Below, piece by piece: positions 1-3,000 of a DNA stretch of 19,882 nucleotides; positions within the stretch are counted from its first letter, which is position 1, and the number at the start of each line of letters is the position of its first letter. The DNA comes from a virus (taxonomy: Duplodnaviria > Heunggongvirae > Uroviricota > Caudoviricetes): IMG/VR virus record IMGVR_UViG_2703718804_000007; one strand, 5' to 3'. The position numbers were made by a program.

Positions 1-3000
1 ATGCGAATTGAGATCTGTATCGCTAAAGAAAAAATCAGCAAAATGCCAAAAGGTTCTGTTCCTGCCCTACAGCAAGAAATGCTGCGACAAATCAGTAAGC
101 GTTATGACGATGTAGAAGTGATCGTTAAATCTGCCAGCAATGATGGACTCACTATTTTAAGAGCCGTAGATAAAGAATCCGCGCAAGAGTTTGTACAAGA
201 AACGCTTCAAAATGTCTGGGAAACAGCGGACGACTGGTTTATTCACTGACTAAAAAACGTCAACATGCAGAAAACTCGCTATATCCGGCAAAAATGGCAT
301 CGCGAATGAAGCATGCAACCGCGCCCGGGCAAAATACGGACTTCCGGAAATCTGAAAAATCATCCATATCAACAGGATGCGCGAAAAATGAGAGTTCCGT
401 CACTTCCGGAATTAACTTTTCCGTGGCAGTATTCGTCCGGCATAGTGTATACCTTCACAATAATGACATAATCAACGCAGTTCATGGGGGAGGTGATGGT
501 CCCCCATCTTTTTGTCTGTTATTCCTGTGCCCAGCCAACCCTGTATGCCAGGATCTCATCCGCACTGCTCAGCGATTCCAGGTCCCTCTTCATGGTGCGC
601 TGGCGAATGTGGATTTCCATCCCTTTAGTGAACATCGCCTGCTCTGCCGCTTCACTCAGCGCAATAAGCTCTTCTGCTGTCACCTGTACATCATTGTTTT
701 CCGCATCCGTCCAGAAAAACGCCTCCGGCAGTTTCCCCGCTTTCGCTGCCGCCACCGATGGCTCAAGGCGCGTCTGCGTTGACTTTCCGTAGTCCCATTT
801 CCGGCCATTGTGGTCAAACGTGTAGTTCGCCGCCTCCATCGCATTACGCCACGCGTTTATTTCATCGCCCTTCATCCCGCGCGCTTTCTCCGCGGTCAGA
901 GTATCAACGACTTTTTCCCCGTCAAACTTCCAGCGCCCGGAGATATCAGCTTTGCGGTTTTCTTCTGTATCCTCAACCTCCACCACACTCTGTCCCACTG
1001 GCCACAGCATCGACACATCCTTACTGATACTCGTGATTATGCCTTCTCTGTCATAAACCAGCTTCAGCGTATCCGCCTTAAATGACGACTGGCTTTCATA
1101 CCAGTCACGGCCATCCTCTGCCTTCAGGTACATTGCCCCCGGAACATCCGACTTCTCAGGAGTATAACGTTGCAGATTTTTAAGATTCATTTCTTCTCCT
1201 CATACGAATATTCAGGACGGGGTACCCGTTTAAGCTTTCCGCACCCGGGAAAATCATGTTATTCATGTTTCACCGTAACCCACTGGCTGCCATCGTGAAC
1301 CTGAAGGAAGCCGTAAGTGACAGCAGTGACACAGGCTTCCCCTAAATTGCCGTTCGTCAGTGATACCTGAGCCGTCCTGATATTCAGAATCACAGCGCCA
1401 TCAGGGGCTGCATTTTCCCCATGCGCACCGCCATAAAAAGAGGGGAAAACGACTGTGCTGGAGGTGACTTCTGTTTTCTCGCTGATACGCACTCTGTTCG
1501 CCTGTGAATCTGCGCCATCCTTCCCTGCGGGGCCCGTCGGCCCGGTATCACCTTTCGGCCCCCGCTCACCGGCAGGGCCTGCCGGGCCGGGGTCACCTTT
1601 ATCCCCTTTTTCCCCTTGTGGTCCTCTGGGGCCGGTAGCACCCTGTGGACCTCGATCACCAGGCTCGCCTTTTTCCCCCTTAGGACCGACGCTACCTGTT
1701 GGCCCCGGAGGTCCAGGTATACCCTGTGGACCAGCCGGACCTGTATCGCCTCTCTCCCCTGCCACACCCTGCAATCCTTGCGGCCCTCTCTCTCCGGCAG
1801 GCCCCCTCGGACCTGCCGGGCCCTGAGGCCCCGGCTCCCCTCTGGGGCCAGTGTCACCTTTTGGTCCCGGAGGTCCTCCGGGATCTCCCGGCTCTCCTTT
1901 TTCGCCTCTGGCTCCGGTTTCACCCCGCGGGCCCGCAGGGCCAGCAGGCCCCTGAATACCCGCCTCTCCTTGCGGTCCCACGGGTCCGGTTTCACCCCGT
2001 GGCCCCTGTACCCCCTGTGGGCCTGCCTCACCACGCTCACCCTTTGGCCCACGCTCGCCGGTATCGCCTTTTGGCCCGGGAATACCCTGTGGCCCCGTGT
2101 CTCCCTTATCACCCTTCGGTCCCCGCGCATTCTCTGCCCGTTTCTTCGCTTCCTCTGCACTCGCCGCTGACGCTTCCGCACGTTTCAGGATTTCCGCGGC
2201 CACCGCTTCCAGCTCTGCAAGGGCTTTCGGGTAATACTGTGCGTCCTCCAGGTCCATCAGAAATTTATTCAGCGTTCCCGGTGCAGACTCCGCCTTCACC
2301 AGAATGTCACCCACATATGACGGCGCGTACCCTTCCGTGTTCAGCGTCACCCGGTACAACCCCGGCTCAACATCCATACTGTAACTGCCGGTTTCCCCCG
2401 GCTGACCATACGCCACCGTGGTGACAATCACCGTCTCCGTTGTGCGGCGCGCTTTCAGCTCTATCGTGCATCCCGGTACCGGCTTACCGGCCCCGTCCTT
2501 CAGCACACCCGATATTCTGACTGCCATGGATTTCCTCCATAAAAAAACCGCAGGACCGGTTTCCCGGCCTGCGGTAAAATTTGTGATTTATTGATGTTAA
2601 AAAGGTGCCATCCGGCTGATCACCCTCAGCAACCGGTCGGCGGGGAAGGTACACTCCCCCGCCACGGTTTCTTACCGCTTACACTGTAAGAACGCCGCAA
2701 TCTCCGCGCCCGCTATCCGGAACCGGAACTCGCACAGTGAAGTGTGGGTGATCCAGATAATGAGCACTACCGTGATACAAATCACGGTGGTTTTTAACGG
2801 TTTTTGCGACATAACGCTTGCTCCTTTTACGGAGAGGCGCTAACCTTTCACTTGCTTAGGATGAATGGTCAGGCCTCGGGTTAAACATGAATGTTTTGTC
2901 CGGGGCCTTTTCACATCAGGCCTTCAGGTGTTCCCTCCGGCCATCAGCCAAAGGCACCCGCGCATACTGTACGGTTTTTGTCTCCTTCCGGCAATCCCGG

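Follow-up and report, generated by a model that had tools for sequence, protein, structure and literature searches.

A probable side tail fibre with a collagen-like tract in a lambda-like Escherichia coli prophage

Gene order at the fibre locus

We analysed a 19,882-nt stretch of viral DNA (IMG/VR record IMGVR_UViG_2703718804_000007), referred to as a whole as the window. It is identical to part of the E. coli ARS-C301 sequence (NZ_CP132983.1, 3061524-3081405, reverse strand) and contains head and tail genes of a lambda-like prophage, the end of which adjoins yecD/aspS. The subject of this work is its stf-like gene, whose product joins an N-terminal domain of the lambda Stf type to a long collagen-like tract (Col) and an 82-residue C-terminal domain (Table 1). 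RefSeq lists the identical ARS-C301 protein as a "prophage tail fiber N-terminal domain-containing protein". We consider it highly probable that this gene encodes a side tail fibre of the prophage, built from an anchor, a collagen triple-helix shaft and a beta-rich, trimerising C-terminal tip.

The gene is preceded by gpJ and hok and followed by a gene for a tail-fibre-assembly-like (Tfa-like)/DUF4376 protein. The genes follow the usual J-(lom)-stf-tfa layout and close a lambda-type late operon, as found for lambda Stf-type fibres. In some relatives (L003, P-EibA) lom takes the position that hok has in the window. The J frame is continuous in the window and starts with a GTG at 6697, preceded by the ribosome-binding site GGAGAGGGGG; a mechanical list of open reading frames (ORFs) runs gpJ out to a TTG at 6748, and RefSeq marks gpJ as frameshifted in RM11911 and UC4224. 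Searching Rfam at the gathering threshold returned no RNA family in the window and no hok/sok RNA around hok. The terminator-like hairpin between hok and stf is probably the 3' end of the hok transcript.

The downstream protein is tail-fibre-assembly-like in its N-terminal half and DUF4376 in its C-terminal half. Across fibres with unrelated tips (L002, L003, L006, L007) the DUF4376 half is near-invariant and the N-terminal ~100 residues change with the type of tip, as would be expected if that half were a tip-specific chaperone or binding module.

Table 1. Features of the fibre locus, in window positions
Feature	Position	Strand	Remarks
Tail-fibre-assembly-like/DUF4376 protein, 223 aa	519-1190	minus	PF14301 (E=9e-17), weak PF02413; phrog_11571, phrog_136
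Side tail fibre (stf-like) gene, probable	1259-2527	minus	422-aa ORF; PF08400 and PF01391; RefSeq WP_050939614.1
Predicted beta-rich C-terminal domain, residues 341-422, 82 aa, unclassified	1262-1507	minus	No Pfam or PHROG match; AlphaFold2 model
Other-frame ORF, 263 aa	1390-2181	minus	
Other-frame ORF, 123 aa	1455-1826	plus	
Col part 2, 40 Gly-X-Y triplets, residues 221-340	1508-1867	minus	Residue count
63-nt (7-triplet) segment absent from one genome (L003)	1616-1678	minus	Perfect 11-nt direct repeat GGGGAAAAAGG
Other-frame ORF, 184 aa	1616-2170	plus	
Other-frame ORF, 241 aa	1699-2424	plus	
81-nt (9-triplet) segment absent from 11 of 57 copies	1733-1813	minus	Imperfect direct repeat CCGGC[A/T]GGTCC; mapped in L002
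P220 codon, one-residue insertion breaking the Gly phase	1868-1870	minus	GDPGGPPG, residues 214-221
Col part 1, 28 Gly-X-Y triplets, residues 136-219	1871-2122	minus	Residue count; PF01391
Linker and short Ala-rich, putatively helical segment, residues 92-135	2123-2254	minus	Adjoins the collagen tract; last part of the PF08400 match
Collar/anchor domain, residues 1-91	2255-2527	minus	Homologous to lambda gpStfN; phmmer to PDB 9e7m chain Ta, E=1.7e-28
Terminator-like hairpin and T-run	2551-2566	minus	Just upstream of the stf ribosome-binding site
Hok/Gef family toxin gene (hok)	2672-2812	minus	Between J and stf
gpJ tail tip (central fibre) gene	3011-6697	minus	Intact; seven J-domain Pfam matches in one frame; RefSeq CDS WP_050939610.1

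Domains of the predicted fibre protein

The N-terminus carries the PfN collar domain of a lambda Stf-type fibre: Pfam matches PF08400 (phage_tail_N / PfN) to residues 1-134 over all 134 positions of the family (E=3.7e-42), and the collar region matches the solved structure PDB 9e7m by sequence. An Stf-like N-terminal anchor and a side tail fibre identity had been put forward in a preliminary description of the window, and both are borne out, with an N-terminal flank of 135 residues. The Ala-rich segment that leads into the tract comprises about five heptads with L,A,A,A,A and L,I,S,A,A at the a and d positions (register assigned by inspection), so that it may form a coiled coil. A helical conformation has been predicted for the final 30 residues of PfN (Ghosh 2012, PMC3368898).

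The collagen-like tract consists of 68 Gly-X-Y triplets by residue count (1508-2122, minus strand) and matches the collagen triple helix repeat PF01391 (E=2.4e-34). Its longest run with Gly at every third residue counts 40 triplets, against a maximum of 9 and a mean of 3.6 in 2000 shuffles of the same protein. Previously the tract had been placed at 1514-2122 as about 68 uninterrupted triplets. The number and the upper bound stand; the lower bound cuts the last triplet, and the tract is not uninterrupted, since P220 shifts the Gly phase after triplet 28. The surrounding GDPGGPPG fits the conserved G-X-P-G-G-P-X-G break that is known from E. coli prophage collagen-like proteins, where it lies in long or first Col domains (Ghosh 2012, PMC3368898), and related fibres whose tips differ are interrupted at the same point.

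At the X position of the tract Pro accounts for 45.6% and Asp/Glu for 36.8% of residues, and the Y position holds Lys/Arg (33.8%), Ala (16.2%), Gln (16.2%) and Thr (14.7%). The corresponding values for the EPclP family of prophage collagen-like proteins are Pro 48.1% and Asp/Glu 35.6% at X and Lys/Arg 31.0% at Y (Ghosh 2012 Table 4, PMC3368898). The tract therefore has the Pfam match, the triplets and the X/Y profile of an EPclP Col domain. The collagen-like shaft proposed earlier is thus supported, as EPclA of this family forms a triple helix experimentally. By analogy with the circular dichroism and trimer data on EPclA, the chains of the window fibre would form one as well.

At the DNA level the tract has a G+C content of 68.3%, compared with 55.7% for the window. 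Tandem Repeats Finder (TRF) detected no tandem array in it, only three 20-22-nt runs of 9-mers, and its best direct-repeat family is 60-75% identical. Gly codons within 1508-2122 are used near-evenly (GGA 15, GGT 21, GGG 18, GGC 15), as are Pro codons, so the DNA is far less repetitive than the protein it encodes. The GGN/CCN-rich sequence also leaves stop-free spans over the tract, and the four long ORFs on other frames, none of which has a Pfam match, are by-products of base composition. The earlier description of such ORFs as spurious is supported by these observations and by allele substitutions that favour third positions of the annotated frame (see below). Two frameshifted database proteins, P0016 and P0129, extend by more than 100 codons through an open alternative frame, P0016 through that of the 263-aa ORF, and their C-terminal halves are out-of-frame collagen DNA. 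Through these open frames, frameshifted database entries yield misleading predicted proteins.

The C-terminal domain measures 82 residues, close to the ~80 expected from the first inspection, and occurs in ~1% of complete E. coli genomes. Neither Pfam at E<=10, PfC (PF06820) included, nor PHROGs gave a match to it; the PfC domain of ECs1228, for comparison, scores E=4.9e-35. A HMMER search of 1.84 billion representatives gave three matches and one real relative family (P0007, 58% identity); P0008 and P0009 were rejected as long repetitive proteins matched by chance. Beyond its own family, the domain has a weak pairwise match to the fibre tip of Escherichia phage 1720a-02 (BLASTP E=2e-4), and the two align as profiles (hhalign 91% probability, E=1e-6). 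The 1720a-02-type tip in turn aligns with PfC (77%, E=2e-5), as does the merged profile of the two (66%, E=5.6e-5), and the best local BLASTP match of the domain itself to PfC covers 16 residues (E=0.08). The shared motifs R-x-R-[LI]-G, D-G-A-[LV]-I and L-Q-V...G-x-x-W-x-x-V occur in the same order. An AlphaFold2 (AF2) model from close relatives only was discarded (predicted local distance difference test, pLDDT, 47); with the three families aligned, AF2 returned an all-beta model with a pLDDT of 76.9. Together, the profile alignments and motifs suggest that the 82-residue domain is a probable distant PfC-like cap. From the part played by PfC in EPclA, it is likely to act as the trimerisation and registration cap and as the distal tip of the fibre.

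Length alleles, conservation and other genes of the window

We compared the gene with its full-length copies in 57 records of complete E. coli genomes. The copy has the length of the window gene in 44 records, is 81 nt shorter in 11 and 63 nt shorter in one; a single copy (L005) has lost 1 nt from a G5 run (window position 1806) and is annotated as frameshifted. The gene is therefore intact in 56 of the 57 copies, and the disruption in most relatives that would have weakened the functional prediction of the preliminary description is not what we find. Both deletions that were mapped at the DNA level sit between 11-nt direct repeats (Table 1).

Protein databases add alleles of 344, 335, ~334 and 313 residues that share both end domains; P0012 and P0013, the two shortest, have lost the interruption. 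There are seven length classes with these end domains, ranging from 32 to 68 triplets, and each length variant keeps the frame. With 0.286 nm per residue, this series corresponds to shafts of ~27-58 nm, and the 68-triplet allele of the window is both the longest and the commonest. Substitutions between alleles within Col fall on the three codon positions in the ratio 3/3/10, a third-position bias that points to purifying selection on the annotated frame.

In other fibres the N-terminus and part of Col correspond to those of the window fibre, after which the sequence runs into a different tip; the switch lies inside the tract. The change to a Gp53-like_C tip comes after about residue 270 (L004/P0014), fibre types containing Pf2 diverge after about residue 175, and the breakpoints of megablast similarity (nt 444, 524 and 980) are all inside the Col-coding region. 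Since Col fills all the space between the end domains, module junctions must fall there. These data support Col as the site of length changes and module swaps. The suggestion that the tract is a hotspot for recombination and length variation can be kept in part: the seven length classes, the repeat-bounded deletions and the junctions within the tract agree with it, whereas the single length of 44 of the 57 copies and the degenerate repeat do not. Slippage of a variable-number tandem repeat, which had been considered as the mechanism, was dropped in favour of deletions between short direct repeats, as TRF and direct-repeat scans found no true tandem array in the DNA. A sister family outside the window (P0020-P0128; PfN-Col-Pf2-globular-Pf2-Col-tip) does have a true tandem unit-number polymorphism in its second Col, which clusters at 36, 48, 60 and 72 triplets, in steps of 12.

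Elsewhere in the window, the tail genes L and K (C40 peptidase) are separated by an insertion that carries a phage antirepressor gene and two Arc-family DNA-binding genes (8308-9903). This 1650-nt block is missing from the otherwise 99%-identical RM11911 prophage. A DinI-like gene lies at 1-249; after it, positions 254-355 hold what is left (102 nt) of a YkgJ-family gene, which one relative, JNE151685, keeps at the same position as a full 330-nt gene.

Assembly model, alternatives and known fibres

As a side tail fibre, the protein would assemble from three chains. Residues 1-91 would attach it to the tail where tube and tip meet. This is the arrangement in Ur-lambda, in which twelve Stf collar domains encircle the gpV/gpM junction and connect through short linkers to four trimeric side fibres (PMC12617516). 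A flexible linker and the short Ala-rich helix would lead into a collagen triple helix of 68 Gly-X-Y triplets, ~58 nm long, in place of the coiled-coil shaft of lambda. Pro at X (46%), together with Asp/Glu at X paired with Lys/Arg at Y, could stabilise this shaft without hydroxyproline, and the single-residue insertion after triplet 28 would probably introduce a local kink or flexible point. The C-terminal domain would most likely trimerise and set the helix register in the manner of PfC in EPclA. That protein is trimeric and contains a collagen triple helix (melting temperature 42 C), and its PfC domain trimerises and renucleates the helix (Ghosh 2012, PMC3368898). The distal knob may then touch the host surface, either directly or via the downstream Tfa-like/DUF4376 protein.

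A more far-reaching version of this model takes the 82-residue domain as a branch of the PfC superfamily, so far unrecognised and narrow in its distribution, that serves both as collagen folding nucleus and as receptor-binding tip, and the in-frame series of 32-68 triplets as an adaptive polymorphism in "reach", matched to O-antigen or capsule thickness, rather than neutral slippage. We regard it as speculative and rather doubtful.

Several points weigh against the side tail fibre reading. A tblastn search of 50,697 INPHARED phage records placed the C-terminal domain in no isolated phage, which leaves its incorporation into virions unproven. One of the two trimerisation modules of EPclA, PCoil, is absent from the window fibre and PfN alone is monomeric (Ghosh 2012), so trimerisation rests on the C-terminal domain. 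That domain gives nothing with hhalign when compared with PfC directly, its PfC homology being transitive only, and the better AF2 model was built from an alignment dominated by PfC-type sequences and is thus not independent evidence of homology. The terminator-like hairpin directly upstream of stf predicts that expression of the gene depends on read-through from the late operon. Such read-through is expected under Q antitermination.

In a different explanation, the gene is a leftover in a defective prophage, open only through its few stop codons, and the fibre is never assembled. Frameshifted copies do exist, with the 1-nt deletion in L005 and the shifts of P0016 and P0129 into an alternative frame; gpJ carries a frameshift flag in the near-identical RM11911 prophage, and the tip is found in no isolated phage. 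A decaying gene is nevertheless hard to match with 56 intact copies out of 57, length changes that are in frame in every case and a third-position bias indicative of purifying selection. The annotation gives J, the tape measure and the remaining head and tail genes of the window as intact, and the non-repetitive N- and C-terminal domains of the fibre, which have an ordinary stop-codon density, are intact as well. We therefore think this explanation improbable.

The protein could also be a moron product, that is, a collagen mimic expressed by the lysogen to serve the bacterium in adhesion or immune evasion, like streptococcal Scl, rather than a part of the virion. The position of the gene after a terminator-like hairpin, its own strong ribosome-binding site, its place in a region where morons (lom, hok) are common and its occurrence mostly in cattle- and human-associated strains, many of them labelled as Shiga-toxin-producing E. 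coli, are compatible with such a role. Independent expression is less easily reconciled with the result that no sigma-70-like promoter was found in 250-3100. The protein has no signal peptide or anchor and begins with the tail-collar domain of lambda Stf, a tail-fibre-assembly-like gene comes next, and the related EPclB is found on the virion; we thus hold this role to be very unlikely. It is scarcely credible that the length of the repeat is an artefact of an assembly that collapsed or expanded it: misassembly is a classic problem with repetitive GC-rich coding DNA and some database entries are frameshifted, but the exact 1269-nt sequence recurs at 100% identity in five separately assembled complete genomes, the length is the same in 44 of the 57 copies, and the tract DNA is too degenerate to collapse, with no array detected by TRF.

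Side tail fibres govern the adsorption speed and the target cells of lambdoid phages, which mobilise virulence genes in Shiga-toxin-producing E. coli lineages. The class of protein to which the window fibre belongs was already described in 2012, and current understanding is unchanged by it; the fresh points are the unclassified C-terminal domain and the shaft-length series. With its identical ends, this natural series could serve in tests of the effect of fibre length on adsorption, or as a hydroxyproline-free collagen scaffold of tunable length.

The closest described family is that of the EPclPs (EPclA-D) of enterohaemorrhagic E. coli prophages (Ghosh 2012, PLoS One 7:e37872, PMC3368898), in which PfN is followed, often after a PCoil coiled coil, by one or two Col domains and then by a C-terminal domain. 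They share with the window fibre PfN, the X/Y bias of Col, the interruption, in-frame differences in Col length between copies and a site in lambdoid prophage tail modules. In EPclA and EPclB a PCoil of about 88-116 residues lies between PfN and Col, whereas in the window fibre Col begins at residue 136, right after the PF08400 match; lacking PCoil, the fibre is not EPclA, EPclB or EPclD as tabulated. Nor does it have the layout of EPclC, whose prototype, ORF-401 of P-EibA, has two Col domains separated by Pf2: the Pf2 repeat is present in ORF-401 only, and the two C-termini are unrelated in alignment. The single Col of the window fibre (205 residues) is longer than that of EPclA (111 residues) and shorter than that of Stx2-86_gp21 (322 residues). 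To the described family the window fibre adds an architecture of PfN, a single long Col and a divergent 82-residue tip, with no PCoil.

Among fibres with a known place on the virion, ECs1228, an EPclB-type protein, has been located on the tail ends of Sp5 by immunoelectron microscopy and is essential (PMC5155283). ECs1228 of the Stx2 phages Sp5/933W resembles the window fibre in being collagen-like, in having a GDPGGPAG break and in ending, past the last Col, with a small beta domain at the C-terminus; the phage that carries it is short-tailed, whereas the window fibre is that of a lambda-like prophage. The fibre of Escherichia phage 1720a-02 (KF030445.1) is 97% identical to the window gene over its N-terminal 524 nt and is followed by a DUF4376 protein 83% identical to that of the window. 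Its tip is the closest detectable relative of the C-terminal domain outside the latter's own family, at only ~32% identity, and the protein differs in length (575 residues), in its two Pf2 repeats and in an extra globular middle domain. Ur-lambda Stf (PDB 9e7m; PMC12617516) agrees with the window fibre in its collar domain, in its place after J and in the assembly-protein gene that comes next, and by this analogy four trimeric fibres per virion would be expected. The two part ways beyond the collar: lambda Stf continues into an Ala/Ser-rich coiled coil (residues 102-393), a hinge and a gp37-like OmpC-binding distal domain, whereas the window fibre has a collagen-like shaft and an unrelated 82-residue tip.

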